Source: Escherichia coli (GTDB lineage: Bacteria; Pseudomonadota; Gammaproteobacteria; Enterobacterales; Enterobacteriaceae). From it: 64,000 nt of DNA. A program made the translations under genes and the position numbers. The stretch lies in the NCBI RefSeq assembly GCF_003018235.1, contig NZ_CP027437.1, one strand, 5' to 3'. Positions within the stretch are counted from its first letter, which is position 1. The number at the start of each line of letters is the position of its first letter. This document shows positions 1-41,890 of the stretch, one piece after another. The notes under the pieces are model-generated. The model did no database searches and had not been told where the DNA came from. It saw nothing but the letters and a program-made list of their open reading frames with translations.

Positions 1-2
1 CT

Positions 3-65
3 GATAAGGCGCTGGAGTATCTGAAGCAGAACGGACTGATAAGCGTGGAGGATATTTTACGATGA
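3..65 (+). CDS. C-terminal end of an upstream prophage ORF (partial, ...DKALEYLKQNGLISVEDILR*)
   Basis: Frame open from window edge to TGA at 63-65; protein-like composition; identity unknown. Confidence 0.3.
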   Translation, partial: DKALEYLKQNGLISVEDILR

Positions 66-149
66 CCTGGCCTGAAGCATTCACCACGGCAGGAATTGCG
101 ATGGCGGTGGCACTGGTTGTGTATTCTATTTGTCGTTGGGGGTAAACAC

Positions 150-401
150 ATGTTCTCTCTGATTCAGCGTGGTCAGCGGTATGTTGATGCAGCTGGTTAT
201 CCTGTGGAGATTTGTTTTTGTTCTGCTGAGAAAGTGGTGTATCGCCGCCAGGACAATCAGACCCGTTCTGCAAGTATTGTTGACTTTAATCAGAATTTTG
301 AACGTCTGGATTATCACGAATATATACGGATTAAATCAGATATGGAGCAGACAGAACATCTGCGGAAATTAAGACGATTACACAAAAGAGGTGGGGAATA
401 A
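150..401 (+). CDS. hypothetical prophage protein (83 aa)
   Basis: ORF-track frame 96..401 (TTG); first ATG at 150; no recognisable motif. Confidence 0.35.
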   Translation: MFSLIQRGQRYVDAAGYPVEICFCSAEKVVYRRQDNQTRSASIVDFNQNFERLDYHEYIRIKSDMEQTEHLRKLRRLHKRGGE

Positions 402-864
402 CCACGGATAAAGAGAACTAAATTTCGTCAGAATTAACAGGAAATAACTGGAACGAAAAATACACCGCTTACGCGGCGGGGTTTCTGCAACCTTAAAACA
501 GGGTAAGAGAAATGGCAGAGATGATGAACAATAAACTCTTCATAACCAGTCTCTTTAAGTTGACTGGCCGGGAGTAACGACCAGTGGCAATACAAAAAAA
601 CCGCTTGCCAGCGTTTGTCTGGTCGGGTTACATTTCCCGTGCACCTCATAAAACGGGTGCCGGGATTCTCAACCCGCAGAAGAACAGAGCGCATAACCGC
701 GCCAGCGGTTTTTTTATGCGTGCCGTATCGTCACACCTTTTTCGCACACGAATTATGGCGGGGCGTACGGGGCCGACTTCGGTCGGGCCGGATCCTCTGT
801 TCTCCGGTGTTGAGAACCCCGTACGTCTCGCCACCCCGAGATTCTCAACTCTGGATGGTGAGTT

Positions 865-1125
865 ATGTCTATCACTGAACAGAGGTTACCCCTTATGGCA
901 AACCGTAAACAACAGCGCGCCCGCACTGAGCGTCGTCACATCCAGACCGAAATCAACCGCAGACTGTACCGGGCTATCACTGTCGCCAGAGTCATGTACT
1001 TCAATATGCTGTGTGATCAGGGATGCCAGATTGCACCTGATTACATTGCCTCCACGTTCAGTTACCTGGCAGACGATCTGCGGGATATGCAACGCCTGGT
1101 TAACGATCAGGCGCATAACCTGTAA
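865..1125 (+). CDS. hypothetical small basic protein upstream of replication gene
   Basis: ATG with GGTGAG RBS; Arg/Lys-rich N-terminus; 86 aa. Confidence 0.4.
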   Translation: MSITEQRLPLMANRKQQRARTERRHIQTEINRRLYRAITVARVMYFNMLCDQGCQIAPDYIASTFSYLADDLRDMQRLVNDQAHNL

Positions 1126-1203
1126 CGCACTTTTTCCTGAAATCATGAAACGGCACTCCGCTATCTGGCGGGGTGTCTGGCTGCCCGTTATCCGGGAGGA
1201 CAT

Positions 1204-3126
1204 ATGACCGTGTATTCAGCGGGAGGTCCGCGCATGCCTGAGCCGGAAGAAGAACAGGCATTCACTGAAGAGGTGAACAGCGCCTTTTCCGGGCTGCCTC
1301 GTTTTGTGTCTGTAAAGCTGGGGCGCAGGATCAGCAGCGCATGGCAGACAAAGGGTTTTGCCGGTGCACGGGAAAAATTTGCGCTGATGGTTCAGAAGGA
1401 TTTGCCGTTCATTACCGGGGTGAATAAACGTTATGCCATTAATCCGGATGAATTACCGGGGTGGCTGTTTGGTGGGCTGGCATCTGATCAGGCATACGGT
1501 GCGGTTCATTCCATGACCTGGCGATTTAATGCCATGGTGGATGGTGACGACGGGGATGCGCATTTACTGGCTCAGGATCTGTCCGTGTTTCTTATTGCTG
1601 AAATGCAGCACCTGAGTGTTCTTCTTGCGGATGAAGATGCGGATGCGGCGGCAGATGCCATTTATGCCATGGTTGCCGGGCTTGTTGAGCATTTCCGGAT
1701 GGAGCCACCGGACTGGAAGCGTTTTATTGGCAGAAAGCTGACACTGGAGCAACTGACTGTTGCCATCAGCCGGATGCTGAGTGTTCGCTGGTGGCAGGGA
1801 AAACTCAGGGCATTCTCCCGTCGCTGGCGTGAACATCTGCTTATAGCTATGGGTGTCGTTCGTCGGCAGTCTTCACCGCACTGCAGTTATGAATGGGTGC
1901 AGAGGTGGCTGGCGGGGCGTAAGCACGGTCGAAGGCTGATGGCGGAAACGGACGTTGAGGATGAAGAAACAGGAGAAAGATTTTCACTTCTCGATTTGGT
2001 TGACAGCAGCATTTCAGATGCGGAGAAACGCCGCGCAGAGCTGATGACCAGGGTTAAGGGGCTGGAAGATTTAGCCCGTTTTGAAGGTGTGGCGCAGGAG
2101 CAGGGGTATATCGGGCTTTTTTTCACGATGACCGCGCCATCAAAATATCATGCCTGGCTGGAGACAGGATATCGCAATCGTCGTTATAACGGCGCAAGCC
2201 CGAAAGACACACAAAATTATTTCTCCGGACTCTGGCGTCAGATCAGTGCAACGCTGAGGCGCAGGGGGATCGGGATTTTTGGATTAAGAAGTGCCGAACC
2301 GCATCATGACGGAACGCCGCACTGGCATGGTGTTCTCTATGTGCATCAGGAGCATGCTGCCGCCTTACAGGACATTCTTGAGTATTACGCCAACCGCGAT
2401 GATGACGCGGGAAAAACGCCCATCCGCAAAGCAGGAAGAAAATCCCACCTGGAAATAAAACCGGTTCTTGATGATCTGGGGAGTGCCTCTGCCTATATCG
2501 CCAAGCATATTGGAATGAATCTTGACGGTTGTGCGCCAGGCGGAATGAATCATGAAACGGGCCATACACTGGTGGTCACTGCCCGCCACGCCTCGGCGTG
2601 GGCGTCATTATGGGGGATCAAGCAGTTTCAGTTTATAGGCAGCACACCGGTAAGTGTATGGCGTGAGCTGCGTCGCTTTAACAATCAGGCTCATGCTGAC
2701 CGGATAAGCCCGGCGCTGGGTGAGTTACACCGTGCAGCCAGTGAGGGTGACTGGAAAACCTATACCAGGCTGCAGGGTGGACCGTTTGTGGCACGAAGAG
2801 ATCTGGTCCTTCGCACATGGTATCAGCGTTCGGAGGAGCCGGATGAGTGTGGGCTACACACCAGTGCGATCAAAGGTGTTTATATGCCGGGGCGTGATAC
2901 GCCACCGGTAGTGACGCGTTCACGTAACTGGAGGATCACCCGGAACGTTACAACAGGCGCTCTCAATGTTAACCGGGGGTCTGCTTTAACGCCCTGGACT
3001 TGTGTCAATAACTGCATTTCGGGCAGAAAACGACCAGATGGTCATCCTCCGGATCCAGGTATAAGGATCCCTGTTCAACTGGAACTGAACTTCGGGGAAG
3101 AGAATAAAGGGAAAAGTGAGCAGTAA
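1204..3126 (+). CDS. phage replication initiation endonuclease, HUH rolling-circle type (P2/186 gpA-like)
   Basis: 640-aa ORF with GGGAGGA RBS; HUH motif set FFTMTAP, PHWHGVLYV and YIAKHIG in canonical order. Confidence 0.7.
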   Translation: MTVYSAGGPRMPEPEEEQAFTEEVNSAFSGLPRFVSVKLGRRISSAWQTKGFAGAREKFALMVQKDLPFITGVNKRYAINPDELPGWLFGGLASDQAYGAVHSMTWRFNAMVDGDDGDAHLLAQDLSVFLIAEMQHLSVLLADEDADAAADAIYAMVAGLVEHFRMEPPDWKRFIGRKLTLEQLTVAISRMLSVRWWQGKLRAFSRRWREHLLIAMGVVRRQSSPHCSYEWVQRWLAGRKHGRRLMAETDVEDEETGERFSLLDLVDSSISDAEKRRAELMTRVKGLEDLARFEGVAQEQGYIGLFFTMTAPSKYHAWLETGYRNRRYNGASPKDTQNYFSGLWRQISATLRRRGIGIFGLRSAEPHHDGTPHWHGVLYVHQEHAAALQDILEYYANRDDDAGKTPIRKAGRKSHLEIKPVLDDLGSASAYIAKHIGMNLDGCAPGGMNHETGHTLVVTARHASAWASLWGIKQFQFIGSTPVSVWRELRRFNNQAHADRISPALGELHRAASEGDWKTYTRLQGGPFVARRDLVLRTWYQRSEEPDECGLHTSAIKGVYMPGRDTPPVVTRSRNWRITRNVTTGALNVNRGSALTPWTCVNNCISGRKRPDGHPPDPGIRIPVQLELNFGEENKGKSEQ

Positions 3127-3253
3127 ATTTTCCGGTTAAGTCAGCGGAAGAAACTGGACTTGTCCGGAGAATAAAAATACCGGTTTTACCTGGGCATGGT
3201 TTTATATACAGTGTCGCTGTATGGCGACAGTTAAGTGAAAAATGAGGTGGAAC

Positions 3254-3523
3254 ATGAGAGGACTGGAGCTTGAACGAATGACGCCGGAAAAAATGCATGC
3301 AATTGGTATGGAGTTCATCAGGAGATCTGAGGCCATGACGCAGGCGGGGATGACAAAAGACGCTGTCAGAAAAAATCTGCTTCCGGCGATACAGCGCCTG
3401 AACCGTGCAAAACATGAGCTTCAGATGGTGGTTGATCAGATGATCGATAAGGCAGCAGAGCTGGAAAAGTATAGCAGTGCGCTTGAAAAAATCATTCAGG
3501 ATATTGTGGGCACTGAGCAGTAA
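3254..3523 (+). CDS. hypothetical helical prophage protein (89 aa)
   Basis: ATG preceded by GAGGTGG RBS; first gene of a tightly spaced three-gene cassette. Confidence 0.4.
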   Translation: MRGLELERMTPEKMHAIGMEFIRRSEAMTQAGMTKDAVRKNLLPAIQRLNRAKHELQMVVDQMIDKAAELEKYSSALEKIIQDIVGTEQ

Positions 3524-3533
3524 GAGGTGGGGT

Positions 3534-4613
3534 ATGCAGGCGATCCTGACGGTATTCCCGCAGCGTAATGCCGGGATAACACTGATGAAAACAGGTAATC
3601 TGACAGCGCGGTTCAGGGACGGGCAGAGAATAATGATAAGGGATGTTCCGTCTGTGATGGCTGGGATGCCATCAGGAGAAATTCCGTCATCAGGACAGAG
3701 GCTGGCGGAAGAGGAAGGACTGACGGCTTTCTTTGCTGACGGAAGGGTAATAAAGCGTGCTGGTGGCAGTGATGCCATGGCGCGTTGGGTGAGCAGGATT
3801 GCAGGCTGCCAGTGTGAGAATGGTGATCACGTGGAGAACATGACAACAGCGCGGACAATGCAGGGAGAGGCGCTTCGGTTATGCCATGCCTGTGATAATC
3901 ATCATTATATGAAAGGATATCGGGCGCTGGCAGATGTGGCAGCCAGAAATCGTGCAGAATGGCTGATGGATTATATCAGGATGAGTCTGGGGCTGGGGGA
4001 AGATCATCAGGTGACCATTCCTGAGTTGTTTTGCTGGGCAGTGCTGAATGATGTGGCAGATGCTGTTCCGGTTATGATCGTAAGGCGTATCAGACAATTG
4101 CCGGAAGAGGAAAAGCTGAGCGGCACGATGAAAGAAGCAGATATTAATCCCTGGCAGACATCAGCAGGCACAGTGGTGAAGAAACTGGCAGATAATGCGA
4201 AGAGCGTTAATGTGTGCAATGTGCGGGTCAGACATGCAGTACGCCAGGAAGAACACAAAGAAATGGAAAAACCGGTGCTGAAACTTGTTGCAGACAGTGA
4301 TCCGGCTGCGGGCTATATGAGGAAGCCCAGAATGCAGCGGCTGTCTCTGCCGGGTTATACCTCGTGGGTGAAGCGTCAGCGATGCTGTGGATGCGGGAAA
4401 CCTGCAGATGATCCGCATCACATCACCGGGCACGGTTTTGGTGGTGCAGGGATAAAAGCCAGTGATTTGTTTGTGATCCCGCTGTGTCGGCAATGTCATC
4501 AGGAATTACACAATGACAGCAAGGCATGGGAGGAGAAAAACGGCAGTCAGTTGCTGTGGGTGATAAGGACGCTGGACAGGGCAGCGGGCATTGGCGCTTT
4601 AGTTGGGGGGTAA
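3534..4613 (+). CDS. Cys/His-rich prophage protein, resembles YdfU/DUF968 family (from memory)
   Basis: ATG with AGAGGTGGGG RBS; C-terminal CCGCGKPADDPHHITGHGFGG...IPLCRQCHQELHN zinc-binding-like cluster and internal CQCENGDH...CHACDNHHY cluster; size about 359 aa. Confidence 0.4.
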   Translation: MQAILTVFPQRNAGITLMKTGNLTARFRDGQRIMIRDVPSVMAGMPSGEIPSSGQRLAEEEGLTAFFADGRVIKRAGGSDAMARWVSRIAGCQCENGDHVENMTTARTMQGEALRLCHACDNHHYMKGYRALADVAARNRAEWLMDYIRMSLGLGEDHQVTIPELFCWAVLNDVADAVPVMIVRRIRQLPEEEKLSGTMKEADINPWQTSAGTVVKKLADNAKSVNVCNVRVRHAVRQEEHKEMEKPVLKLVADSDPAAGYMRKPRMQRLSLPGYTSWVKRQRCCGCGKPADDPHHITGHGFGGAGIKASDLFVIPLCRQCHQELHNDSKAWEEKNGSQLLWVIRTLDRAAGIGALVGG

Positions 4614-4614
4614 C

Positions 4615-5319
4615 ATGACACCGCAACAGATGGTATGGGCGAGAGAGCAGGTTATTTTTGCACTGAATCCACCGGATAAACGTCAGAAGGGGCAACTGGA
4701 GGCATTTGGTGATTTTGCCAGGTCAGACACCAGGCGTTACGGGAGGCAGAGAAACAGGACACTGAACATTGATGGCCGGTGGTATTGTCAGGATGGTGAT
4801 CCGGTACATGCTGCGGCAACAGCCTGTTATGCAATACAACCGGATATGATCACCAGGGAAGCGTTCAGAACGGCACAACTGAGGAGGAGGATTTATTGTC
4901 TGGAGGATTATCATCGGGCCTGGGTGTTATTCAGTTACAGCTTGCAGAAAAAACGAATACACCATCTTCTGGTCAGTGAGTACATCTGGATGAGGATGTT
5001 CGAGCGGTTGCAGGGGAAACGGGTTACGGACAGGATGACAGGAAATCTGATTGAAATAGCGAGGATGGCTGCATGGAATGCTGCAGTGACAGCCGGTGGG
5101 ATTGTTGCAGGTAAGGTTCTGATTGCTCCTTCATGTGCGGCGCAGATTGCAGGTGTAAAACCAAACACATGGAGTCAGCATTACAAGGCTCACTGGTGTT
5201 TTATGCATGAAGTATGCGATGAACTGGATCATGAGGCGCTGGTGACCATTACAGGAATAAAAAATCACCAAAAAAACGGCGAAAAATATAAATTTGCTAA
5301 AGTGAATATTTTAAGGTAG
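4615..5319 (+). CDS. hypothetical protein, candidate Q-type late antiterminator (by position and size only)
   Basis: Start 1 nt after upstream stop; 234 aa; followed immediately by promoter-like hexamers and a strong intrinsic terminator, as for Q/PR-prime/tR-prime. Confidence 0.3.
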   Translation: MTPQQMVWAREQVIFALNPPDKRQKGQLEAFGDFARSDTRRYGRQRNRTLNIDGRWYCQDGDPVHAAATACYAIQPDMITREAFRTAQLRRRIYCLEDYHRAWVLFSYSLQKKRIHHLLVSEYIWMRMFERLQGKRVTDRMTGNLIEIARMAAWNAAVTAGGIVAGKVLIAPSCAAQIAGVKPNTWSQHYKAHWCFMHEVCDELDHEALVTITGIKNHQKNGEKYKFAKVNILR

Positions 5320-5322
5320 ATT
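5294..5322 (+). promoter_or_regulatory. candidate sigma70 promoter (possible PR-prime analogue): TTGCTA, 17-nt spacer, TAGATT
   Basis: Hexamers read directly at 5294-5299 and 5317-5322, at the 3-prime end of the candidate Q gene. Confidence 0.25.
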
Positions 5323-5363
5323 TGAGGCAAATTTGATAGTCTGCCGTATTTGTAAGCAGAGCA

Positions 5364-5390
5364 TAAACCCGCATATTGCGGGTTTTTTTA
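5364..5390 (+). terminator. intrinsic terminator (AACCCGCA-TATT-TGCGGGTT plus T7)
   Basis: Perfect GC-rich hairpin followed by TTTTTTT. Confidence 0.65.
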
Positions 5391-5513
5391 TGCCCGAAAT
5401 TTTCCCTCAGCGCAATAAATACGCTGGTGGTTGTGAGTACCGGTCTTTCAGCTTGCTGGCTTTTTCGACAAGAGTTATTGGTATGCCACGTTAACCGGAC
5501 AGGGGGAAAAGAC

Positions 5514-5711
5514 ATGCTGAAACAGCAGGATATGACAGAAACCGCCAGGGTGGTGTTTAATGAATTAAGCATTACCGAACCGGCGACCGTCGGGGAAATA
5601 GCGCAGAATACCTGCCTTTCACGTGAACGCTGCCAGTTAATACTGACTCAGCTTGTTATGGCGGGTCTGGCTGACTATCAGTTCGGTTGTTACAGACGCC
5701 TTCAGCAATGA
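5514..5711 (+). CDS. small winged-helix-like DNA-binding protein (65 aa)
   Basis: ATG with AGGGGGAAAAG RBS; helix-turn-helix-like segment VGEIAQNTCLSRERCQLILTQLVMAGL. Confidence 0.45.
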   Translation: MLKQQDMTETARVVFNELSITEPATVGEIAQNTCLSRERCQLILTQLVMAGLADYQFGCYRRLQQ

Positions 5712-5862
5712 AGGCATTCTTTTATTGTGAAGATGGGCGACTGGTTAGGTGTTACAGCACCCAACCAGTCATTCGCTCATGCTTGAAGGTCACAAGCGAA
5801 CCCAGGCCCACCGCTTTTGCACAAAAGCCCGGAGAGCCTACCGGAGATGAGTTTGTTGATCT

Positions 5863-6930
5863 ATGACGCATGTTGTAAAAATATCAGAAAGTGAACTGGT
5901 CAATGCTGACTGCCTGGAATTTATACACACGTTGCCAGATGACAGTATTGACCTGATCGTTACCGATCCACCGTACTTTAAAGTGAAACCCAATGGCTGG
6001 GATAACCAGTGGAAGGGTGATGAAGATTACCTGAAGTGGCTGGATCAGTGTCTTGCGCAGTTCTGGCGGGTGCTGAAACCTGCCGGAAGTCTTTACCTGT
6101 TCTGTGGCCATCGCCTGGCATCTGACATCGAAATCATGATGCGTGAACGCTTTAATGTGCTGAACCATATTATCTGGGCGAAGCCGTCCGGACGCTGGAA
6201 CGGATGCAACAAGGAAAGCCTGAGGGCGTATTTCCCGGCCACAGAGCGCATTCTGTTCGCGGAACACTATCTGGAGCCGTATCGCCCGAAAGATGATGGT
6301 TATGAGGCGAAGGGCAGGGCACTGAAACAGCATGTGATGGCACCGCTGATTTCTTACTTTCGTGATGCGCGTGCCGCCCTTGGGATAACGGCAAAACAGA
6401 TTGCTGATGTCACAGGAAAGAAAAACATGGTGTCGCACTGGTTCAGTGCCAGTCAGTGGCAGCTGCCGAACGAAAGCGATTATCTGAAATTACAGGCGCT
6501 GTTTGCCCGGGTGGCAGAAGAGAAGCATCAGCGCGGAGAACTGGAAAAGCCACACCACCAGCTGGTGGTAACGTATACCTCACTGAACCGGCAGTATGCG
6601 GAGTTGCTGAGTGAATACAAAAATCTGCGCCGGTATTTTGGCGTGACGGCGCGGGTCCCGTACACCGATGTGTGGACGCACAAGCCGGTCCAGTTTTACC
6701 CGGGTAAACACCCCTGTGAAAAACCGGCGGAGATGCTGCGGCAGATAATTTGTGCGAGCAGCCGTCCTGGTGACATGGTGGCGGATTTCTTTATGGGGTC
6801 GGGCTCAACCATAAAAGCCGCTATGGCGCTGGGGCGTCGTGCAATTGGTGTTGAACTGGAAGAGGAACGTTTTGCGCAGACCGTGAAAGAGATTAGTCAT
6901 ATCCTGACAGGCTCAATTGATGACGGATAA
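5863..6930 (+). CDS. orphan DNA amino-methyltransferase (N6-adenine/N4-cytosine, beta-class motif order)
   Basis: TDPPYF (motif IV) near N-terminus and FFMGSGST (motif I) near C-terminus; no adjacent restriction endonuclease. Confidence 0.8.
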   Translation: MTHVVKISESELVNADCLEFIHTLPDDSIDLIVTDPPYFKVKPNGWDNQWKGDEDYLKWLDQCLAQFWRVLKPAGSLYLFCGHRLASDIEIMMRERFNVLNHIIWAKPSGRWNGCNKESLRAYFPATERILFAEHYLEPYRPKDDGYEAKGRALKQHVMAPLISYFRDARAALGITAKQIADVTGKKNMVSHWFSASQWQLPNESDYLKLQALFARVAEEKHQRGELEKPHHQLVVTYTSLNRQYAELLSEYKNLRRYFGVTARVPYTDVWTHKPVQFYPGKHPCEKPAEMLRQIICASSRPGDMVADFFMGSGSTIKAAMALGRRAIGVELEEERFAQTVKEISHILTGSIDDG

Positions 6931-7380
6931 GGATGGATAAAGACATGGTCAGTTCAGGATGCGAAGCAAGTAAACAGATAAGGCTATAAAAAAAACTGAC
7001 AGTAGAAAAATAGCTTTTTCCCAGGTATTCATGAACACAATCTCTTAAAAGCGCCCGCTGATACCAGCGGGCAATACATACTGGCATTGATGTTAAGTTT
7101 ACAGGTTTCATTTATCGTATCGTGCGACACGACGTTGTTATGTTAATAAGTGTGATTTTTGATGTGAAATGTTTGTTGCGTGTTTTTTGATGGGTTTCTC
7201 ATTTTTCAGGCATCATCTCGTCACTGATGTGCAGCACAGCGATGAGGTGCTACTACTTCCACGGAGCGGATTTTGTCTTTTTTGTGGGTGGTAAAAATCT
7301 CCTTATAGCAGGATGTGATAATTATTTATCAGTATAATCTTATGAGATTGACGCGATTTCTCCGGATTTGTTAGAAGATC

Positions 7381-7420
7381 ATGCATGGTGAATCCACCTC
7401 AGCGGTGGGTCATAATGACC
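7381..7420 (+). repeat. about 40-bp conserved motif, copy 1 (GCATGGTGAATCC-hairpin-CATAATGAC)
   Basis: 33 of 40 identical to copy 2 at 7940-7979. Confidence 0.5.
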
Positions 7421-7456
7421 GCCTGTTCGCCGGTTCAATCCCTGCGGGGGCCACCA
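7404..7456 (+). pseudogene. degenerate tRNA: ileX/ileZ-like 3-prime half (CAT anticodon, T-arm, GGGGGCC-A-CCA) lacking a pairing 5-prime acceptor strand
   Basis: 3-prime half aligns closely to E. coli ileX recalled from memory; no 5-prime sequence can pair with the acceptor 3-prime strand. Confidence 0.4.
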
Positions 7457-7457
7457 T

Positions 7458-7534
7458 GCGCCGTTAGCTCAGCTGGACAGAGCAATTGCCTTCTAAGCAA
7501 TCGGTCACTGGTTCGAATCCAGTATGGCGCACCA
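7458..7534 (+). tRNA. tRNA-Arg (anticodon TCT, reads AGA)
   Basis: Cloverleaf folded by hand: 7-bp acceptor stem, perfect 5-bp anticodon stem ATTGC/GCAAT, loop CTTCTAA, T-loop TTCGAAT, encoded CCA. Confidence 0.85.
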
Positions 7535-7535
7535 T

Positions 7536-7610
7536 GCGGTCATCGTATAATGGCTATTACCTCGGCCTTCCAGGCTGATGATGCGGGTTCGATTCCAGCT
7601 GGCCGCTCCA
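7536..7610 (+). tRNA. tRNA-Gly (anticodon TCC), glyT-like with one T-stem mismatch
   Basis: 75 nt, near-identical to E. coli glyT recalled from memory; anticodon loop CTTCCAG; acceptor stem with one G-U; T-stem GCGGG/CCAGC has a G-A mismatch. Confidence 0.7.
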
Positions 7611-7630
7611 TAGAGGATTATGGGGACTGT

Positions 7631-7768
7631 ATGTTGAGTATTTTTCTGCGTTACCTTTCATCGGTAAAAATAAACACACAACAACTATTTATGCTGGCAT
7701 TAGCAATGATAGTTATTGGTTTTCTCGGAACTTGTTTATTTATTTACTATATTTTTGTCGATAATTAA
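7631..7768 (+). CDS. small hydrophobic peptide ORF (45 aa, MLSIFLRYLSSVKINTQQLFMLALAMIVIGFLGTCLFIYYIFVDN)
   Basis: ATG ORF in AT-rich spacer after tRNAs; one predicted TM helix; weak RBS. Confidence 0.25.
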   Translation: MLSIFLRYLSSVKINTQQLFMLALAMIVIGFLGTCLFIYYIFVDN

Positions 7769-7939
7769 TATTTTTAGTATTTAGCCAGAGTGGCCCAAAC
7801 AGAAAATAAAGTTACTGTGAAACAGGGGGGCCTAATAAAAATAATCACCACTAAATTCGGGGCTTTAAAAATGCTAAGAACATCACATTTCATTATGCCG
7901 GGTACTGGAGAATAACATGATGTTTTGTTAAAAATGATT

Positions 7940-7979
7940 TTGCATGGTGAATCCCCCTGTGCGGCGGGGCATAATGACA
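7940..7979 (+). repeat. about 40-bp conserved motif, copy 2
   Basis: See copy 1; a partial inverted copy (GGTCATTGCAG...CACCATGCAG) lies at about 8021-8064. Confidence 0.5.
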
Positions 7980-8321
7980 GATGTTTGGTTGCGTATTGTA
8001 TAGGCAAGTTGCGGATTCTGTCTGGTCATTGCAGAATTCACCGGGAGGCACCCGGCACCATGCAGATAATTGTTTTGTGGATGATAATACCAGCCCCTCT
8101 CCGGAGGGGCTTTCTTATGGGCGAAAAAAAGCCCGGGGAGCCGGGCAATAGCATGAGATATACGTTTTTATAGACGTACAGATTTTAATCAGAATTTATG
8201 GGGCTGCGCAACTGCGTGGCCTTTTTTGTTTTGTGGGCTAAGGTTTTCCCCTTTGATTCGCCATGTGGCTGAACCTGTAGCCCGCCACTGTTCAGACGCA
8301 ATCCCGGCAAGGGGAGGAATA

Positions 8322-10349
8322 ATGGCATTTAAACACTACGATCTGGTCTCTGCCAGCAGCGGTGATGAACTGCAAAAGAAACTGACAGAAAAAATAAATG
8401 AAGGGTGGCAGCCATACGGTTCGCCGCTTGTTTCGTATGACGATAACGGGATGAAAATTATTCAGGCCATTGCAGCAGAGGGTGATGTCAGGATCCCGGT
8501 TGAAACGCCTGATGATGGTGGTGATTCACCGGTCACAATGACCTCCGGTGCACCTGATTATTATTATGTTGTTGTGCTTGCCGGACAGTCCAACGGCATG
8601 GCCTACGGTGAGGGGCTTCCGTTACCGGACTCTTATGACCGCCCGGACCCGCGCATTAAACAGCTGGCACGCCGCAGTACAGTGACGCCGGGTGGGGACG
8701 CCTGTGCATACAATGATGTGATTCCGGCTGACCATTGTCTGCATGATGTACAGGATATGAGCGGTGTTAATCATCCGAAAGCGGACCTGAATAAGGGGCA
8801 GTATGGCTGTGTCAGTCAGGGGCTGCATATTGCCAAAAAACTGCTGTCGTATATCCCGCAGAATGCAGGGATACTTCTGGTGCCCTGCTGCCGTGGTGGT
8901 TCTGCATTCACCACCGGGGCTGACGGCACATTCAGTGAGGTCACCGGCGCATCCGCTGACGCTGCACGCTGGGGTGCCGGTAAACCCCTGTATCAGGACA
9001 TGGTCAGCCGGACAAAAGCGGCGCTGGCCAAGAACCCGAAAAACAGGCTGCTGGCGGTGGTATGGATGCAGGGCGAGGCAGACCTTGCGTCAGGCAGTCA
9101 GCAGCATAACGGGTTATTCACGGCCATGGTTCAGCAGTTCCGGACTGACCTGTCCTCACTTGCTGCGCAGTGCGTGAGTGGCAATGCTGCCACGGTGCCG
9201 TGGATTTGTGGTGATACCACGTATTACTGGAAGGCCACTTATGGCACACAGTATGAAGCCATTTATGGAGCCTATAAGAATCTGTCCGCACAGAATATTT
9301 TCTTTGTACCGTTCCTGACAGATGAAAACGGCGCAAACACGCCAACGAACCAGCCAGCGGAAGACCCGGATATTGTGGCTGTGGGGTATTACGGTGCGGC
9401 ATCACGAACACAGGCGAACTGGACGACAGCGCAACGTGACAGCCATTTCAGCACCTGGGCGCGTCGCGGCATCATTTCTGACCGCCTTGCGTCAGCTATT
9501 CTGGTGCACGCGGGACGTACGTCAGGTTTCATTACCGGTGAAGTTTCTTCTCCGGACACTGCATCCGGTGACGGTGGTTCGTCCACTGATGCGGGTACGG
9601 ATGCGGGGACCGGCACTTCCGGAACAGGAAGTGATGACGCTACCGGAACGACACCAGCCACCGCTGCCATTATTCTGAGTGCAGACGGAGGGGATGTTTC
9701 GGCACAGGGCTGGACGGTGGAAGGCACCACGGTGACCACCACGGCAAACACGGTGACTTCATCGGGTGAGGCGCTGGCGCAGAATGTGCTGAGTGTTCCG
9801 AAACAGAGCGGGGCAGCATGGAAGCTTGTTCATACCACCACAGATGAGCCAGCGGAACTGCTGAACAATGGCGGTGAGTTCCTGTGTCGTTTCCGTATCA
9901 CGGATACTGCCATTGCTGAGGGGCGTTATGCCTTTGGTCTTTACTGGCTTCCGGACGCACAGAAGATACCAGCCGGTGCGACATTCAATAAAACAGGAAG
10001 CGGGATGTCCCCGTCCATGCTCAACTTCTATGTCCAGACGGATGGCAGCAACATAAACCTGTTATCACACTGCAGTACGAAGAGTGCAGGGAATCTGAAG
10101 ATTGGCTCATTCGGTGCATTTAACAATGAATGGCATACCTTCCGTCTTCGCTACCATGGTGGCAATACGGCAAGAGCAACGGTGACGCTGGACAGTCAGG
10201 TGGTGGGAGATATAACGCTGTTATGTGCGCCGTCAGCGGCCAGTGCCGGTGACACTCTGTCGATGATAAGTATCACATCGGGTGATACATACAGTATTGA
10301 AGTGGAAAGCCTGAGTGTGACGGTGAACGGGGCTGCGGCAGCGGCGTGA
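8322..10349 (+). CDS. prophage sialate O-acetylesterase-like protein (NanS-p-like) with long C-terminal Thr/Gly-rich domain
   Basis: GGGGAGGAATA RBS then ATG; SASA-type catalytic motif VLAGQSNGMAYGEG; N-terminal region resembling DUF1737; position equivalent to the esterase gene downstream of stx in Stx phages. Confidence 0.6.
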   Translation: MAFKHYDLVSASSGDELQKKLTEKINEGWQPYGSPLVSYDDNGMKIIQAIAAEGDVRIPVETPDDGGDSPVTMTSGAPDYYYVVVLAGQSNGMAYGEGLPLPDSYDRPDPRIKQLARRSTVTPGGDACAYNDVIPADHCLHDVQDMSGVNHPKADLNKGQYGCVSQGLHIAKKLLSYIPQNAGILLVPCCRGGSAFTTGADGTFSEVTGASADAARWGAGKPLYQDMVSRTKAALAKNPKNRLLAVVWMQGEADLASGSQQHNGLFTAMVQQFRTDLSSLAAQCVSGNAATVPWICGDTTYYWKATYGTQYEAIYGAYKNLSAQNIFFVPFLTDENGANTPTNQPAEDPDIVAVGYYGAASRTQANWTTAQRDSHFSTWARRGIISDRLASAILVHAGRTSGFITGEVSSPDTASGDGGSSTDAGTDAGTGTSGTGSDDATGTTPATAAIILSADGGDVSAQGWTVEGTTVTTTANTVTSSGEALAQNVLSVPKQSGAAWKLVHTTTDEPAELLNNGGEFLCRFRITDTAIAEGRYAFGLYWLPDAQKIPAGATFNKTGSGMSPSMLNFYVQTDGSNINLLSHCSTKSAGNLKIGSFGAFNNEWHTFRLRYHGGNTARATVTLDSQVVGDITLLCAPSAASAGDTLSMISITSGDTYSIEVESLSVTVNGAAAAA

Positions 10350-10481
10350 GGATAAAAAAAGCTGCCGTGGAAAGTGTCCTGAACCGGCAGCAAGGTCAAA
10401 TGATGGATATACCAATAAGGTTTAATAGGCGCAGATATTTCTAACCGGAAGGCACTTAACGGTCAATAATGGAGGTTGGTA

Positions 10482-10667
10482 ATGACATTTATACAACTGA
10501 TACTGCTATATTTCTGCACGGTGGTCTGTGCGTTATATCTGGTGAGCGGTGGCTATAAAGCCATCAGAAATTATGTCCGCCGAAAAATTGATGATGCAGC
10601 GGCTGAGAAGCTCAGCAGAACAACACAGGCTGCCTCATCCCCGAACGAACCAACCCTTCCACAGTAA
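10482..10667 (+). CDS. small single-pass membrane protein (61 aa)
   Basis: GGAGG RBS 6 nt upstream of ATG; N-terminal hydrophobic helix. Confidence 0.45.
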   Translation: MTFIQLILLYFCTVVCALYLVSGGYKAIRNYVRRKIDDAAAEKLSRTTQAASSPNEPTLPQ

Positions 10668-10689
10668 CGTCTCTCAGCGGGAAAATACC

Positions 10690-11025
10690 ATGACAGAACT
10701 GAACAAACTGGTCACTGCAGATGCAGTGAAGGCCGCACTGCGCTCTGAAGAAGTGCGGGGAAAACTGAAGGAAACCATCCGCAAAACGTTTGAGGCACAG
10801 ATTGATGCGGATGTGGAAGCGGTGCTGGATGAGCTTATCGGGCCTGCGGAAGCTCAGCCGGGAGCACCGGCCGGAGAGGATGCGCAGGCGGATGACACGT
10901 CAGCGGAAAACGGTGCGGCACAACCGGAACCTGAATCAGGAACCGAAGCTCAACCGGACGCTGCTTCCGGAACAGGAACGCAACCGGAGGGTACCCCGGA
11001 GCCGGAACCGGCGACGTTGCTGTAA
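10690..11025 (+). CDS. acidic low-complexity protein (112 aa)
   Basis: ATG in frame of ORF 10549..11025; C-terminal E/P/A/G/T-rich tail. Confidence 0.4.
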
Positions 11026-11102
11026 CACCTCATACTCAGGCCACCAGCATACAGCGGTGGCCTTTTGTTATCGTGCGCTTCCGGAGAACGGGAGACGGGG
11101 AT

Positions 11103-11318
11103 ATGTACCAGATGGAAAAAATCACAACAGGGGTGTCATACACCACGTCAGCGGCGGGAACGGGATACTGGTTACTGCAGCTGCTGGACAGGGTCTCCCC
11201 GTCCCAGTGGGCGGCGATAGGCGTGCTGGGGAGTCTGCTGTTTGGTCTGCTGACGTACCTGACGAACCTGTATTTTAAAATCAGAGAGGACCGTCGTAAG
11301 GCGGCGCGGGGAGAATAA
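11103..11318 (+). CDS. holin, phage-21 S-type (pinholin-like) with dual-start motif MYQM
   Basis: Near-identity to S21 C-terminal region ([14 protein letters not shown]...[22 protein letters not shown], from memory); two TM segments. Confidence 0.8.
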
Positions 11319-11321
11319 ATA

Positions 11322-11953
11322 ATGAACCATGAAGAAATGAATCAGCGCTTCAGTCGCCTGGAAAATGAAATTGCCGGACTGAATAAAAAACTGTCGGCGC
11401 TGGTGACTTCTGAAGATGAAAAAAAAAACGCCGCGATGAACAGGAGGCGGCGTTTTATGATTATTGCATCAAAGTTGCCCGCAGGACCTTTGCGAATTTT
11501 TTGCAGGAAAAGCTATCACCGACCACATCGTCAGAAAAGTACTCCATTACGGTTGAAAGTGCCGGAGAGGAAGGCAATAAACGTTATTTTATTGCGTCTG
11601 CACCGGATAAAGACGAGGAACCCCGTCGGCCTTTCAGGGTTTCCTATGAAGAGGGGGAGTTCGTCGTTTATGAGAACGGAAAACCTGTCCGGGCATCGCA
11701 TCATCACTGCCTGAAAATTATTGATCTCGCTATTGGATGCCTGAAAGACGAAAACACCAGGGTTATGAAACGCATTGGCCGTTGCATGGGGTATCTGCAG
11801 GTGGCGGCAGAGATTGAAGCACTTGACAGTGGTGCTGACAGGGATACAGCGGTGCGGGAGTTCCTTCTTCGTGATTTCAATACCACGCCCTTTAAAAAAG
11901 TGCCTTATGACTGGATCCAGCCGGGCCTGACTTATCTCAAAGGGCGTATATGA
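11322..11953 (+). CDS. hypothetical gene between holin and endolysin, split into two frames at an A10 tract (11419-11428); fused product about 210 aa if -1 shift
   Basis: Frame 0 ORF 11322.. is protein-like for about 33 codons then junk-like; frame -1 is protein-like from the A-run to 11953 but has no ATG start; A10 tract followed by 7-bp-stem hairpin ACGCCGC...GCGGCGT. Confidence 0.35.
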
Positions 11954-11995
11954 GTTGGCATGTTATCTGTGGCCGATAAATCCTGATAAATATCC

Positions 11996-12529
11996 ATGAA
12001 CGCAAAAATCAGATACGGCCTGTCGGCTGCCGTTCTGGCGCTGATTGCCGCAGGGGCTTCTGCGCCAGAAATCCTTGACCAGTTTCTGAATGAAAAAGAA
12101 GGTAATCACACCACGGCATACCGTGATGGTGCGGGTATCTGGACCATCTGCCGTGGTGCCATTCTGGTGGACGGTAAGCCTGTTGTTCCCGGCATGAAGT
12201 TGTCGAGGGAAAAATGCGACCAGGTTAACGCCATCGAACGTGACAGGGCGCTGGCATGGGTGGAGAAAAACATCAAAGTGCCGCTGACCGAACCGCAGAA
12301 AGCGGGGATTGCGTCATTCTGCCCGTACAACATCGGTCCTTCGAAATGCTTCACCTCAACGTTTTACCGGAGACTGAACGCCGGAGACCGTAAGGGGGCA
12401 TGTGCTGAAATCCGTCGGTGGATATATGACGGTGGCAGGGACTGCCGTATCCGCTCAAACAACTGCTACGGTCAGGTATCCCGGCGTGACCAGGAGAGTG
12501 CGCTGGCGTGCTGGGGTATCGACAGATAA
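11996..12529 (+). CDS. SAR endolysin (lysozyme, phage-21 R-type)
   Basis: N-terminal signal-anchor-release helix LSAAVLALIAAGASA followed by lysozyme catalytic region EGNHTTAYRDGAGIWTICRG. Confidence 0.8.
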   Translation: MNAKIRYGLSAAVLALIAAGASAPEILDQFLNEKEGNHTTAYRDGAGIWTICRGAILVDGKPVVPGMKLSREKCDQVNAIERDRALAWVEKNIKVPLTEPQKAGIASFCPYNIGPSKCFTSTFYRRLNAGDRKGACAEIRRWIYDGGRDCRIRSNNCYGQVSRRDQESALACWGIDR

Positions 12530-12619
12530 GCAGAATATTTTGCTGAAAAATGAGATTTTCCCACGCGTCCGGAAAACACAAAATCCTTCATAAAGGTATT
12601 TCAGTAGTGAATAAAAGTA

Positions 12620-12660
12620 AAAACCCCGATTGCGCTAACAGTCGGGGTTTTGTGTTTCTG
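12620..12660. terminator. bidirectional intrinsic terminator-like hairpin (AAAACCCCGA...TCGGGGTTTT)
   Basis: GC stem flanked by A-run and T-run. Confidence 0.5.
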
Positions 12661-12749
12661 ACCTTGAATAAGGCAAGGGAGAAATTATCAGGTAGGGAGG
12701 TGCTTTCCCTGTGAGGAAGTATAAAAGATTCTTTCTGAGGTTGTCCATT

Positions 12750-12863
12750 ATGAAAGGCATTGAAGTGGAGACGCCAGCCAGTCTGGATTTAACAAGAGCA
12801 GCAGCCTTTGCCATTCGTATTGTGGCAATTGCCATACTGGTCTGGGCAATCCGCTGGTGGTGA
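12750..12863 (+). CDS. small hydrophobic ORF (37 aa) overlapping the Rz start
   Basis: ATG ORF ending TGGTGATATG where Rz starts; one TM-like helix; weak RBS. Confidence 0.2.
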
Positions 12864-12864
12864 T

Positions 12865-13332
12865 ATGAACCGTGTTCTGTATGTGTTGATTATTGTCCTG
12901 CTGGTGGCCTGCGGTGCGCTGTGGCTGGCAACAGACCATTACCGCGATAATGCCATCACTTACAAAGCGCAGCGCGATAAAAAAGTCAGAGAACTGAAGC
13001 TGGCTGACGCCACCATTACTGACATGCAGCAGCGCCAGCGTGATGTTGCTGCACTCGATGCAAAATACACAAAGGAGTTAGCCGATGCGAGAGCTGAAAA
13101 TGAAACTCTGCGCGCTGATGTTGCTGCTGGTCGTAAGCGCCTGCGTGTCAACGCCACCTGTGTGTCCGCCACAGACAAAGCCACCGGCACCGCCCGCGTG
13201 GGTAATGCTGCCCGCCCCAGACTGGCAGACGCCGCTCAACGGTATTATTTCACCCTCAGAGAGCGGCTGATGACGATGCAGAAGCAACTGGAAGGGGCAC
13301 AGGAATATATCAGGACGCAATGCGTGAAATAG
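12865..13332 (+). CDS. i-spanin Rz
   Basis: N-terminal TM helix then coiled-coil periplasmic domain; embedded Rz1 frame. Confidence 0.7.
13100..13270 (+). CDS. o-spanin Rz1 (lipoprotein embedded in Rz in +1 frame)
   Basis: Lipobox LLVVSAC and Pro-rich mature region, fully inside Rz. Confidence 0.65.
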
Positions 13333-33869: not shown

Positions 33870-34475
33870 GTGGATAAGGGAAAAGAGATTCTTGCAGTAC
33901 GAAATGCCGGTTACAACGAATACGGCGGTATAAACTGTGAGGTGCAGTTTGAAGGCGCGGTGAATGAAAAAGGTGAAGCGTTATGGCTGCCATATACGGC
34001 AACGGAAACGGATAATACTGAACACGGAAAAGCATTATGGTCTGGTCTGACAGCAGGAAAGTACGGAGATGTGACCGCCTTTGCTGCCACGGAAGCTGTT
34101 CTTGAGGCGGCAAAATCGGTGAAAAGGGAGGAGATTAATCTCTGGCGGGACGTGCAGGAAAATATGGAATACGTGATGGAATTCAACGGAAGAAAATGGG
34201 ATTACGGCAAGAAGACATTGTCCAGGATAAGCACGACGCGCCTGATGGCGGAAAAAAACAGTCTTCCGGAAGGATTTGCGTGGACGGATGGTGAAAATAA
34301 TGTGGTGCCGGTGACGGCGGCGGAAGTTATCGCGCTGTCGGATGCGATAGAGAAGGCGATGTTTGCGAAGGGGGTGGAGATTAACACCAGACAGTTGCAG
34401 ATGAAAGCAGAGGTTGAGGCGCTGACAGAGCTGAAGTCCATCAGAAGTTATGTTGTTGGCTGGCCTGCCAGTTGA
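33870..34475 (+). CDS. hypothetical protein in tail-fibre-assembly position, not lambda Tfa-like
   Basis: GAGGAGG RBS then GTG; 201 aa; no similarity to lambda Tfa recalled. Confidence 0.4.
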   Translation: MDKGKEILAVRNAGYNEYGGINCEVQFEGAVNEKGEALWLPYTATETDNTEHGKALWSGLTAGKYGDVTAFAATEAVLEAAKSVKREEINLWRDVQENMEYVMEFNGRKWDYGKKTLSRISTTRLMAEKNSLPEGFAWTDGENNVVPVTAAEVIALSDAIEKAMFAKGVEINTRQLQMKAEVEALTELKSIRSYVVGWPAS

Positions 34476-35135
34476 ATAAAAAAAGCGGGGCCACCCCCGG
34501 GCCCCGACATAACGAAGTATCAGATGTTTATAATTATTAGCTTACTAACTGTGCCATATCAGAATACTGCAGGAAGTGATGTTGTTATCATTTTTGCAAG
34601 CAGGGCGTTTCTGGAGGGAATCGATTGGTGATGGAGTGTGCAATGATGAAGGGAATAAGCCTCTGCAAAACAAAAAAAGACTTTAACAAAATCAAGCTCG
34701 CTTAGTGGCGCATCTGCCCGTATCCGCACCAGTCGTCCGGAAAATGATTCAAACACCGGGCGGCAAAAGTATTACCAGTGTAGCAACCTGGAATGCGGCG
34801 TATGCTTCTCAACTCTGGCAGCTTTCCATAAATTCACATCGAAACACGCTTCCGGCGTTCACTCTTCAGAAGGTATCCCGTGGCATGAACTGCCAGCTTC
34901 ACACTGGTGAAACAATCAGATGACTTTTCCTTTACCTCAAATTAACAGGCAGAATTGCCGGAGTAACAAAAAAACGATAGATTACGCGCGGGTGCCTTTC
35001 GGCTGATGGTCGGAGGGAATACCCGAAGGCCAGATGTGGAAAGGCCCCGGAAAACACTTTTGTTTAACCGAGGCCCTAACCGTCTACCCTAAGCAAGTGA
35101 TAGGTTAGCGCCTCCCCGAAAAAGGAGCAAGCGCT

Positions 35136-35276
35136 ATGTCGCAAAAATCGCTGATCGCCATCACGCTCTGCGTGACAGCAACCCTCATCATCTGGATATT
35201 GCACGGTTCGCTGTGTGAGATACGGATGAGTTTCTGGGGAGCGGAGTTTGCGGCGTTCTTACAGTGTAAGCAGTAA
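35136..35276 (+). CDS. Hok/Gef-family type I toxin (46 aa)
   Basis: AAGGAG RBS; TM helix then SLCEIR...EFAAFLQCK matching Hok signature SLCEIRYRDGHREVAAF (from memory); structured flanking RNA. Confidence 0.6.
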   Translation: MSQKSLIAITLCVTATLIIWILHGSLCEIRMSFWGAEFAAFLQCKQ

Positions 35277-35417
35277 GGAGACCGCGACGGGGGAGTAATC
35301 CCCCGTCAATCGGTTGTCAGGGTAAGGTCGAAGTGGCACCCAAATTTAAATAGAGGCCCACCAGTAAGAGTAAGAGCGGTGGGCTTAGCACTTGTTTAAA
35401 TTTGAAAGGAATTCTTT

Positions 35418-35714
35418 ATGAGTGAAATGGTATTTTGTCGCGGCTGCGGCAAGGAAATACATAAAAATGCCATATCTTGCCCCAATTGTGGAGCACCTCA
35501 AAGAACAGCAAGTTCAAAAAGCAGGATTACAGCTGCACTACTGGCTTTCTTTTTTGGTGGTCTCGGTGCACACAAATTTTATTTAGGTAAAGTGGGACAA
35601 GGATTTCTTTATCTTATTTTTTGCTGGACATTCATTCCGGCAATCGTGGCTTTTATTGAGTTTATTATCTATCTATGCACCTCAGATGAAGATTTCGCCC
35701 GCAAATATGGCTGA
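35418..35714 (+). CDS. zinc-ribbon plus TM2-domain membrane protein (98 aa)
   Basis: CRGCG...CPNCG zinc ribbon; TM2-like motif FFFGGLGAHKFYLG and two TM helices. Confidence 0.6.
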   Translation: MSEMVFCRGCGKEIHKNAISCPNCGAPQRTASSKSRITAALLAFFFGGLGAHKFYLGKVGQGFLYLIFCWTFIPAIVAFIEFIIYLCTSDEDFARKYG

Positions 35715-35749
35715 CATCTAGCGGACGAATCAGAATGACAAACCCGCAA

Positions 35750-35780
35750 CCCGCAGCGTAAAAACTGCGGGTTTTCTTTT
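35750..35780 (+). terminator. intrinsic terminator after TM2-domain gene
   Basis: CCCGCAG...CTGCGGG hairpin followed by TTTTCTTTT. Confidence 0.6.
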
Positions 35781-35960
35781 GCTACCCATCACGAATGAGG
35801 GCACCATAAAGAAAGCCCACAGCATAGTGGTTGCGGGCTTTTTACATTCAAAGATGGACGTTTTATGGACATTGAAAGTTTAAATCCTTTAACTTTCAAC
35901 TGGTTGATGCTAATTTTAACGCACCCGAAGGCGCGTTGGCGATACACTCAATATAAAGGA

Positions 35961-36356
<396 letters not shown>

Positions 36357-36572
36357 TCAAAATGTGTGATGGAAATCTCATAATTTTGTCACTTTTTGTC
36401 AACGAATCTTTTTTGTGAGAAATCGCAGGAAGAGGTGTTTTTTTACTTGAGGAATATCTCAAAGCGAGCCATATTTGATGAGATCGATAGTGACTAAATC
36501 GCTTCAGTTTCACAACTAACAGAATAAAAAAACGGCAGCTCAAGGGCTGCCGTTTTGTGTTTCAGGTTTTTG

Positions 36573-37310: not shown

Positions 37311-37444
37311 GACGTTTTGACTTTCCTCAAAATGTAATACGGGAGATTCTCTGTTCCTGCTCCCGGTTAAGACCAGCTACAATAGCACACTATATTAAAC
37401 GGCAAAGCCGTAAAACCCCAACGATAAACGAAGAAGCAGTATAT

Positions 37445-39153: not shown

Positions 39154-39214
39154 CCTAAAGAATCAAGACGATCCGGTACGCGTGATTTTCTTTTCACATT
39201 AATCTGGTCAATAA

Positions 39215-39243
39215 CCTTGAATAATTGAGGGATGACCTCATTT
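39215..39243 (+). promoter_or_regulatory. sigma32 heat-shock promoter of clpB (CCTTGAA, 14-nt spacer, CCTCATTT)
   Basis: Match to sigma32 consensus CTTGAAA / CCCCATNT. Confidence 0.6.
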
Positions 39244-39282
39244 AATCTCCAGTAGCAACTTTGATCCGTTATGGGAGGAGTT

Positions 39283-41856: not shown

Positions 41857-41862
41857 TGATAA

Positions 41863-41890
41863 AACGAGCCCTTCGGGGCTCGTTTTTGTC
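41863..41890 (+). terminator. intrinsic terminator after clpB
   Basis: ACGAGCCC-TTCG-GGGCTCGT hairpin plus TTTTT. Confidence 0.7.

Follow-up and report, generated by a model that had tools for sequence, protein, structure and literature searches.

A likely occupied cargo site with a convergent sRNA pair and a small membrane-peptide ORF at the stxAB position of a stx-negative lambdoid prophage of Escherichia coli

The interval considered here, positions 7611–8321 of a 64,000-nucleotide stretch of Escherichia coli DNA (the window), separates the end of a tRNA-Gly(UCC) gene from the start of a sialate O-acetylesterase gene, with ORF and tRNA calls placing the gap at 711 bp. A sequence-only reading had sized this gap at about 700 bp and noted that the order of candidate antiterminator, tRNA cluster, esterase gene and lysis cassette around it resembles Shiga-toxin (Stx) phages, in which stxAB sits between the tRNAs and the esterase; the gap itself was described as an empty toxin slot of AT-rich sequence with several hairpins, a repeated motif and only a 45-aa hydrophobic ORF. 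Gene calls and phage matches bear out the gene order (Table 1), and stxAB does occupy that position in two relatives, the Stx2a phages Stx2_EH1910 (locus L003) and P13771 (L005). The slot is nevertheless not empty, as it contains an STnc100 sRNA gene, an AsxR/AgvB-type anti-sRNA gene and a conserved small membrane-peptide ORF, such that the hydrophobic ORF exists as described but is accompanied by two sRNA genes of known families. Together these sRNA genes make up the right 60% of the interval as a convergent pair that is also found 3' of stx2B in Stx2 phages. AT-richness holds for the left 301 bp (33.6% GC, with the small ORF at 28.3%) and not for the right 410 bp (47–49%), and terminator-like hairpins are indeed enriched (7 found against 1.3 expected).

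Table 1. Features of the interval and its surroundings, in window coordinates.
Feature	Position	Strand	Basis
Q-like late antiterminator, 238 aa	4603–5319	+	phrog_304 'anti-termination protein Q-like', E 8.2e-42
Candidate PR' promoter, TTGCTA-17-TAGATT	5295–5323	+	By-eye reading, 8/12 matches
Intrinsic terminator, stem 5365–5385 plus T-run	5365–5392	+	About 45 nt after the Q-like gene
TrmB-like ORF, 65 aa	5514–5711	+	
DNA adenine methyltransferase gene	5863–6930	+	NCBIfam NF008572 and others
Chimeric pseudo-RNA gene, STnc100 leader/5' arm plus ileZ-type tRNA 3' half	7366–7457	+	Local alignments
tRNA-Arg(UCU), argO homologue of Stx phages	7458–7534	+	ARAGORN; Rfam, 69.3 bits
tRNA-Gly(UCC), first element of the stxAB-replacing cassette	7536–7610	+	ARAGORN; Rfam, 46.6 bits
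Small hydrophobic ORF, 45 codons (44 if the start is the conserved TTG/ATG/GTG at 7634)	7631–7768	+	
Poorly conserved spacer, ending in conserved blocks 5' of STnc100	7769–7911	+	Alignments
STnc100 sRNA gene (RF02076; equivalent to EcOnc27, related to PasD)	7912–8122	+	Rfam
Anti-sRNA, AsxR/AgvB (EcOnc01-03) family, AsxR-like variant, convergent to STnc100	8126–8176	-	Rfam and alignment
Anti-sRNA terminator	8131–8146	-	Terminator scan
Anti-sRNA promoter, -35 TTGCGC (8211–8206), 18-nt spacer, -10 TAAAAT (8187–8182)	8182–8211	-	Sequence reading
Intrinsic terminator, 10-bp stem (hairpin 8200–8223) plus TTTTTTGTTTT	8200–8233	+	Terminator scan
NanS-p-type sialate O-acetylesterase, 675 aa	8322–10349	+	Pfam DUF1737+SASA+DUF6645; phrog_143, E 1.9e-278
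Lysis cassette	11103–13332	+	
Holin	11103–11318	+	PHROGs holin match
Frameshifted gene	11322–11953	+	
Endolysin	11996–12529	+	NCBIfam endolysin match
ORF at the Rz (spanin) position	12865–13332	+	RefSeq Rz1 lipoprotein at the corresponding position of homologous regions

Evaluating the flanking genes, we found that relatives of the Q-like gene carry the RefSeq label 'bacteriophage antitermination protein Q', and that its product has no similarity to the quuQ-type Q of Stx2_EH1910; judged by sequence, it is of another Q family. The candidate PR' promoter at the end of this gene was not called by our sigma-70 scan, and the sequence that follows (within 5295–5392) is a short leader ending in an intrinsic terminator, a probable tR', with weak isrK and Trp-leader matches at 5327–5391 in the Rfam scan. 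The methyltransferase gene is common to many Stx2a phages, and window positions 5378–6884 are 86.5% identical to Stx2_EH1910. On the right, the predicted esterase, on whose kinship with the prophage esterase family the earlier comparison had been made to depend, shares 51% identity along its entire length with the NanS-p of the Stx2a phage P13771 and has the NanS-p architecture (DUF1737, SASA and a C-terminal lectin-like domain, 5' of lysis genes). It is followed by small DUF1378 and DUF826 genes and then by the holin gene; the ORF at the Rz position gave no significant family match. Aligning 5,300–10,400 with Stx prophages had been suggested as a check, and a megablast of this region matched 331 phage records, mainly of Stx-converting phages, with flanking genes similar to the Stx-phage late region. 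Given the gene order, the NanS-p identity and these phage records, the description of a Stx-phage-type neighbourhood is correct: this is a lambdoid late region whose Q, tRNA, nanS-p and lysis genes are homologous to those of Stx phages.

The STnc100 gene is recognized over the full length of its model (positions 1–206 of 206) at 145.6 bits (E 2.8e-33) against a gathering score of 47, with the closing stem formed by 7942–7949 and 8056–8063 and an intrinsic terminator at 8092–8111 followed by a U-tract. Its fold is conserved across 10 aligned loci, with 34 consensus pairs of which 3 show compensatory changes, and the gene keeps its place in each of the 10 related loci irrespective of cargo, including P13771, where it begins 75 nt after stx2B. 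For its promoter, the sigma-70 scan returned nothing convincing; an extended -10 element (TGTTAAAAA, 7926–7934) is a candidate from reading the sequence. STnc100 overlaps EcOnc27, 3' of stx2B, and its homologues are expressed in strain EDL933 by northern blot and RNA-seq (PMC5331693), with EcOnc27 associated with Hfq according to Hfq-CRAC in strain Sakai (PMC4104026, PMC12711010).

Convergent to STnc100 lies the anti-sRNA, which scores below the Rfam gathering scores of both candidate families (AsxR, RF02703, 44.5 bits and E 1.3e-4 against 63; AgvB, RF02702, 28.4 bits against 56) and has the descriptive features of the EcOnc01-03 group, being a unit of about 51–53 nt (8176–8126) that faces STnc100. 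Aligning it across six loci, including a bona fide AsxR (L005) and a bona fide AgvB (L004), revealed a 3' part (TCTCATGC..GCCCG..CGGGC-U-tract) conserved in 5 of the 6, with L006 diverging, and a compensatory change in the stem. The promoter hexamers are invariant in the six loci except for the -10 of L006 (AAAAAT). Compared with AsxR, the 5' part carries differences at 5 of about 20 positions, leaving the anti-sRNA with a 5' seed of its own, CGUCUAUAAAAACGUAUA, distinct from both AsxR and AgvB. In the published description, anti-sRNAs of this group are 51–60 nt long, combine a conserved 3' part of about 42 nt that holds the terminator with a variable 5' part of 14–18 nt, face a second sRNA at the moron site in convergent orientation, and antagonise the core-genome sRNAs FnrS or GcvB through their 5' ends (PMC4104026). 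The pattern seen here, a conserved promoter and 3' part with a varied 5' part, fits the group of Tree et al. 2014 as far as sequence comparison goes. Overlapping the anti-sRNA -35 element and lying just 5' of the esterase gene is a terminator on the opposite strand that is conserved in Stx2a phages, its equivalent hairpin in P13771 being at 4274–4300.

To the left of the interval, the tRNA-Arg(UCU) gene is 90–93% identical to its counterparts in P13771 and Stx2_EH1910 and marks the left edge of the conserved sequence, and the tRNA-Gly(UCC) gene that follows it has no counterpart in either phage by sensitive blastn. Directly before the tRNA-Arg lies an element that ARAGORN, like every other tool applied, did not call as a tRNA. 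Local alignments match its first part (7366–7419) to the STnc100 leader and 5' arm (7923–7978) and its second part (7409–7457) to the 3' half of the P13771 ileZ tRNA, and therefore we interpret it as an STnc100::ileZ chimera, with the anticodon-loop sequence TCATAAT as the junction. This accounts for the repeated motif noted before, which is real (7377–7419 and 7936–7978 are 84% identical) and is a duplicated 5' part of STnc100 joined to the 3' half of a decayed ileZ tRNA. Consistent with this, a sub-threshold STnc100 match covers 7355–7586 (25.8 bits), the equivalent element of L002 scores 43.6 bits, and in L002 the chimera copy and the STnc100 copy of the repeat are nearly identical. A search of 6880–7420 against phage records, addressing the origin of the chimera and of a 435-bp non-coding stretch, gave no match.

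The small ORF contains one strongly hydrophobic stretch (residues 19–43; Kyte-Doolittle peak 2.6) predicted to form a transmembrane helix, and its pattern of conservation makes it a probable gene for a small membrane protein. We aligned 8 variants (79–100% DNA identity), each of which has the tRNA-Gly(UCC) 5' of the ORF, and considered alongside this reading the alternative that 7611–7770 is a non-coding RNA or DNA element in which the frame is open by chance (e.g., the processed trailer of a tRNA, a regulator of the STnc100 transcript or an extension at its 5' end, or a site of recombination or protein binding). Against the alternative, the frame is open in all 8 variants, its stop (TAA or TGA) never shifts, the second codon can serve as a start in every variant (TTG, ATG or GTG), stop codons interrupt all five other frames, and indels occur just outside the ORF and never inside it. 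Identity is 82–91% within the ORF and 49–75% in the following 150 bp, and pairwise dN/dS is below 0.5 in most pairs (mostly 0.2–0.5, range 0.2–0.8), with conservative replacements (I/V, T/M/V, F/L). Pointing the other way, the excess of variable columns at third codon positions is mild (12, 10 and 17 at positions one, two and three), and the central 60 nt are near-invariant, most synonymous sites included, which could reflect constraint on RNA or DNA instead of coding. Placing the observed substitutions at random left the frame open in 43–70% of trials per variant and matched the observed amino-acid conservation at P 0.01–0.35 per variant, these tests not being independent of one another; since this permutation support is moderate, we do not claim the ORF as a proven coding gene. 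In three variants its Shine-Dalgarno sequence is poorly conserved.

The distribution of the ORF is narrow. Of 5426 complete E. coli genomes, 23 contain it, and it is an annotated feature in none of the 23 (RefSeq/PGAP). Among 5.8 billion proteins we found 7 clusters, all of those with an organism name being from E. coli and one coming from a JGI metagenome, and profile searching among 1.84 billion representative proteins recovered only the family's own 5 representatives. The missing annotation and the lack of further homologues speak for the non-coding alternative. There was no family for it in Pfam, NCBIfam, PHROGs or PADLOC, and no tblastn match in 50,697 phage records. Weighing these observations together, we consider a non-coding element rather unlikely, and a small membrane-protein gene remains our preferred reading.

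If the ORF is coding, its product could resemble either of two classes, since small inner-membrane proteins such as AcrZ, MgrB and MgtS, like type I toxins, are about 30–50 aa long with one hydrophobic helix and a short polar N-terminus. The likeness is one of class and comes without sequence similarity to either. Read as a toxin, the ORF would encode the membrane-depolarising component of an RNA-controlled type I toxin-antitoxin-like module and not a benign modulator. In favour, the ORF is like type I toxins in size, in its one hydrophobic helix and in its very low GC, abundant sRNA genes adjoin it, and it stays intact in strain MFDS1022581 (L008), where a decayed prophage remnant keeps little beyond the tRNA-Arg, the tRNA-Gly, the small ORF and STnc100. 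Scanning in and beside the ORF, however, revealed no antisense promoter or terminator, and no toxin family matched in the four family collections named above, such that we regard a toxin as quite improbable.

The limits of the variable segment can be placed exactly. P13771 has ileZ, argN and argO at 2332–2580, stx2A/stx2B at 2674–3914, STnc100 at 3989–4194, AsxR at 4196–4248 on the minus strand, the same terminator hairpin and nanS-p from 4400. By sensitive blastn its homology to the window comprises the 3' half of ileZ and the argO-type tRNA-Arg and extends to 7535, and homology to Stx2 phages restarts at 7924, about 18 nt 5' of the STnc100 closing stem. These two limits define an exchangeable cassette at 7536–7923. 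Here it carries the tRNA-Gly(UCC) and the small ORF, and in the Stx2 phage it carries stx2AB with short flanks. The absence of A and B subunit ORFs noted earlier extends to all 64 kb, in which tblastn with Stx2A/B gave a best E of 2.5, and word-7 blastn of Stx2-phage tRNA-to-nanS-p regions matched the window at the RNA anchors only. The cassette has no similarity to the 90-bp and 75-bp stx2-proximal flanks, and 7600–7923 has no match in any phage record. The further suggestion of a former stx site, in which a Stx phage lost stxAB by deletion and left a decayed scar, could draw on stxAB lying between the same anchors in L003 and L005 and on the adjacent chimera as a sign of illegitimate or short-homology recombination in the region, but it is very improbable given that neither stx nor its proximal flanks left a trace, that the resident tRNA-Gly and intact ORF form a coherent unit in 8 lineages (synonymous divergence up to 0.33, conserved above the flank), and that this cassette is never beside stx in the loci examined. 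By its divergence across these 8 lineages, the cassette now resident is a long-established unit of its own.

Taken together, we consider it likely, and hold this with good confidence, that 7611–8321 is a cargo ('moron') site downstream of PR' in a stx-negative lambdoid prophage of E. coli, and an occupied one. The site lies 3' of the Q gene and terminator and 5' of the lysis genes, and its cargo varies among L002–L009 between conserved anchors: iraM lies between or beside them in L002 and L003, stx2 in L003 and L005, and plasmid-stabilisation, regulator and TerB genes in L004, with the small-ORF cassette recurring in L002 and L006–L011. What defines a Stx phage, stxA and stxB between the late tRNAs/PR' and the nanS-p/lysis genes, is absent here, and lacking stx the locus falls outside that definition. 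Two of the options that the sequence-only reading had left standing thus fit, as the prophage is a toxin-negative relative and the slot, a known moron site, holds a non-stx cassette.

Moron sites that carry a convergent sRNA pair have been published with this layout. According to PMC4104026, the stx-negative Sakai prophages Sp3, 4, 9, 10, 11 and 17 and the Stx phages Sp5 and Sp15 carry such pairs, at a site that likewise follows Q/PR', precedes nanS-p and the lysis genes, has variable upstream cargo, and sets a plus-strand EcOnc27/STnc100-type sRNA against an anti-sRNA of about 51–53 nt. The tRNA-Gly and 44–45-codon ORF cargo does not feature in that description, and the 5' seed found here is distinct from AsxR and AgvB. 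Stx2a phages (of the 933W/Sp5 type, e.g., P13771, or methylase-bearing, e.g., Stx2_EH1910) share with the window the TrmB-like and methylase genes (86.5% identical in DNA), the argO-type tRNA-Arg (90–93%), STnc100 (70–91%), the terminator before nanS-p, NanS-p itself (51% amino-acid identity) and the holin/endolysin order. Unlike them, the window has no stxAB, its ileZ has decayed into the chimera, the tRNA-Gly replaces the second tRNA-Arg and Q is of a different family. The EPEC/EHEC arrangement PasD/STnc100-esterase-PasA/PasC-holin in the preprint of Zhu, Shabalina and Storz 2026 (10.64898/2026.05.13.724894) similarly places an STnc100-family sRNA directly 5' of the esterase and shares the holin/lysozyme operon after it and the surrounding mosaicism; the small ORF and the STnc100::ileZ chimera are unreported in it.

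Building on the published behaviour of these families, we propose that in the lysogen each sRNA would be transcribed from a promoter of its own, associate with Hfq and target host RNAs, with the anti-sRNA sponging or destabilising a core sRNA through its variant 5' seed. Homologous sRNAs are expressed in lysogens and bind Hfq (PMC4104026, PMC5331693, PMC12711010). Upon induction, Q-modified RNA polymerase from PR' would read through tR' and all terminators of the interval and co-express the tRNAs, small ORF, nanS-p and lysis genes, as with stx2 in Stx phages; late genes including moron-site cargo are co-transcribed from PR' after Q-dependent antitermination (PMC8065619). As no terminator separates it from the tRNAs, the small ORF is presumably co-transcribed with them, and it would yield a single-pass inner-membrane peptide with a cytoplasmic N-terminus. 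Our best guess at its role is lysogenic conversion, through modulation of a membrane protein or of the integrity of the membrane.

As a tentative proposal, one that we would sooner doubt than assert, the tRNA-Gly(UCC) and the 44–45-aa ORF may form an undescribed lysogenic-conversion cassette for a new single-pass membrane peptide at the stxAB position, with the argO-type tRNA and the STnc100 promoter/5' arm serving as homologous anchors that swap cargo, stx included, and with the chimera as the scar of such a recombination. Since the cargo slot and the sRNA families are known, the locus is largely ordinary, and lambdoid prophages that lack stx and share this late-region layout are common, their sRNA pairs published (EDL933 alone has 11 STnc100 copies, all expressed, and 7–10 nanS-p alleles). 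The new items are minor, namely a rare unannotated tRNA-Gly and small-ORF cassette and a chimeric RNA-gene scar. Automated annotation is blank over a stretch with a pair of regulatory RNA genes and what is likely a gene for a small protein, and 'empty' toxin slots should therefore not simply be accepted as such. Beyond this, the exact breakpoints, one at the 3' end of the tRNA-Arg and one at the STnc100 promoter, combine with the rare cassette to offer a natural comparison for the exchange of stx cassettes, and the small ORF is a candidate new small membrane protein to test.

Comparing the window with other genomes revealed that a prophage of E. coli O158:H23 CFIAFB20140388 (NZ_CP076709.1) matches 7300–8400 at 100% identity. 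A second prophage of the same strain, beside raiA/bamD/rluD/yfiH, is 99.2–99.4% identical to window positions 1–5400 and 34400–39400 but only about 94% identical over the late region, and we therefore regard the window as a mosaic relative of these prophages. Lying 3' of the prophage part of the window are chromosomal ryfD and an rrn operon.

The window is mosaic. One prophage of E. coli O158:H23 CFIAFB20140388, at 1.156 Mb, matched the slot region (7300-8400) at 100% identity; the flanks (1-5400 and 34400-39400) matched a second prophage of the same strain, located beside raiA/bamD/rluD/yfiH, at 99.2-99.4% identity. Matches to two different prophages of a single strain suggest that co-resident prophages have recombined with each other. 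The outer limit of the prophage is placed before ~39 kb by the RyfD, rrn operon and StyR-44 features of the chromosomal flank (39164-47307), while in its early region we found isrK and a C4 antisense RNA that together (641-838) resemble an antisense control module of the P1/P7 type, acting in immunity or on an antirepressor.

RNA features of the early region and the chromosomal flank, in window positions
Feature	Position	Setting	Support
isrK	641-715		Rfam, 65.4 bits, above gathering score
C4 antisense RNA	751-838		Rfam, 77 bits, above gathering score
RyfD	39164-39302	chromosomal flank	
rrn operon with tRNA-Glu	42298-47307	chromosomal flank	
StyR-44	44078-44186	chromosomal flank	

Between the methylase gene and the tRNA cluster, we observed 435 bp (6931-7365) that held no convincing ORF, matched none of the phage records, and was 96-99.8% identical across four related prophages, in one of which the neighbouring cassette (tRNA-Gly plus the small ORF) reached only ~82%. 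At this position, the Stx2a phage Stx2_EH1910, which carries the methylase gene, has only 40 bp. Next to this stretch and immediately 5' of tRNA-Arg lies a chimeric element (7366-7457) in which the leader and 5' arm of the sRNA gene STnc100 run into the 3' half of an ileZ-type tRNA, with TCATAAT as the junction. Upstream of the chimera, a promoter-like TTGACG-17-TTAGAA is retained at 7349-7377, from which the tRNA cluster could be transcribed.

A heavily decayed prophage remnant in the yccA-hyaA interval of E. coli MFDS1022581 (L008, 2532-3184) has kept tRNA-Arg, tRNA-Gly, an intact small ORF and STnc100. Its Q, methylase and esterase genes are gone, along with those for lysis and the structural genes. 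The block of RNAs and small ORF may have been selectively retained there.

Elsewhere in the late region, a short leader directly 3' of the Q gene (5295-5392) ends in a strong terminator and is weakly similar to isrK and Trp-leader; it probably represents the short transcript from PR' to tR', a counterpart of the short regulatory RNA that has been described in Stx phages. Further downstream, the small genes DUF1378 and DUF826 occupy the esterase-holin interval (10350-11100), where the sRNAs PasA and PasC have been reported in EPEC/EHEC prophages (10.64898/2026.05.13.724894). Between holin and endolysin, the overlapping ORFs 11322-11714 and 11501-11953 match successive portions of phrog_1085, which points to one putative frameshifted gene (11322-11953), and its homologue in relatives is marked as frameshifted by RefSeq.
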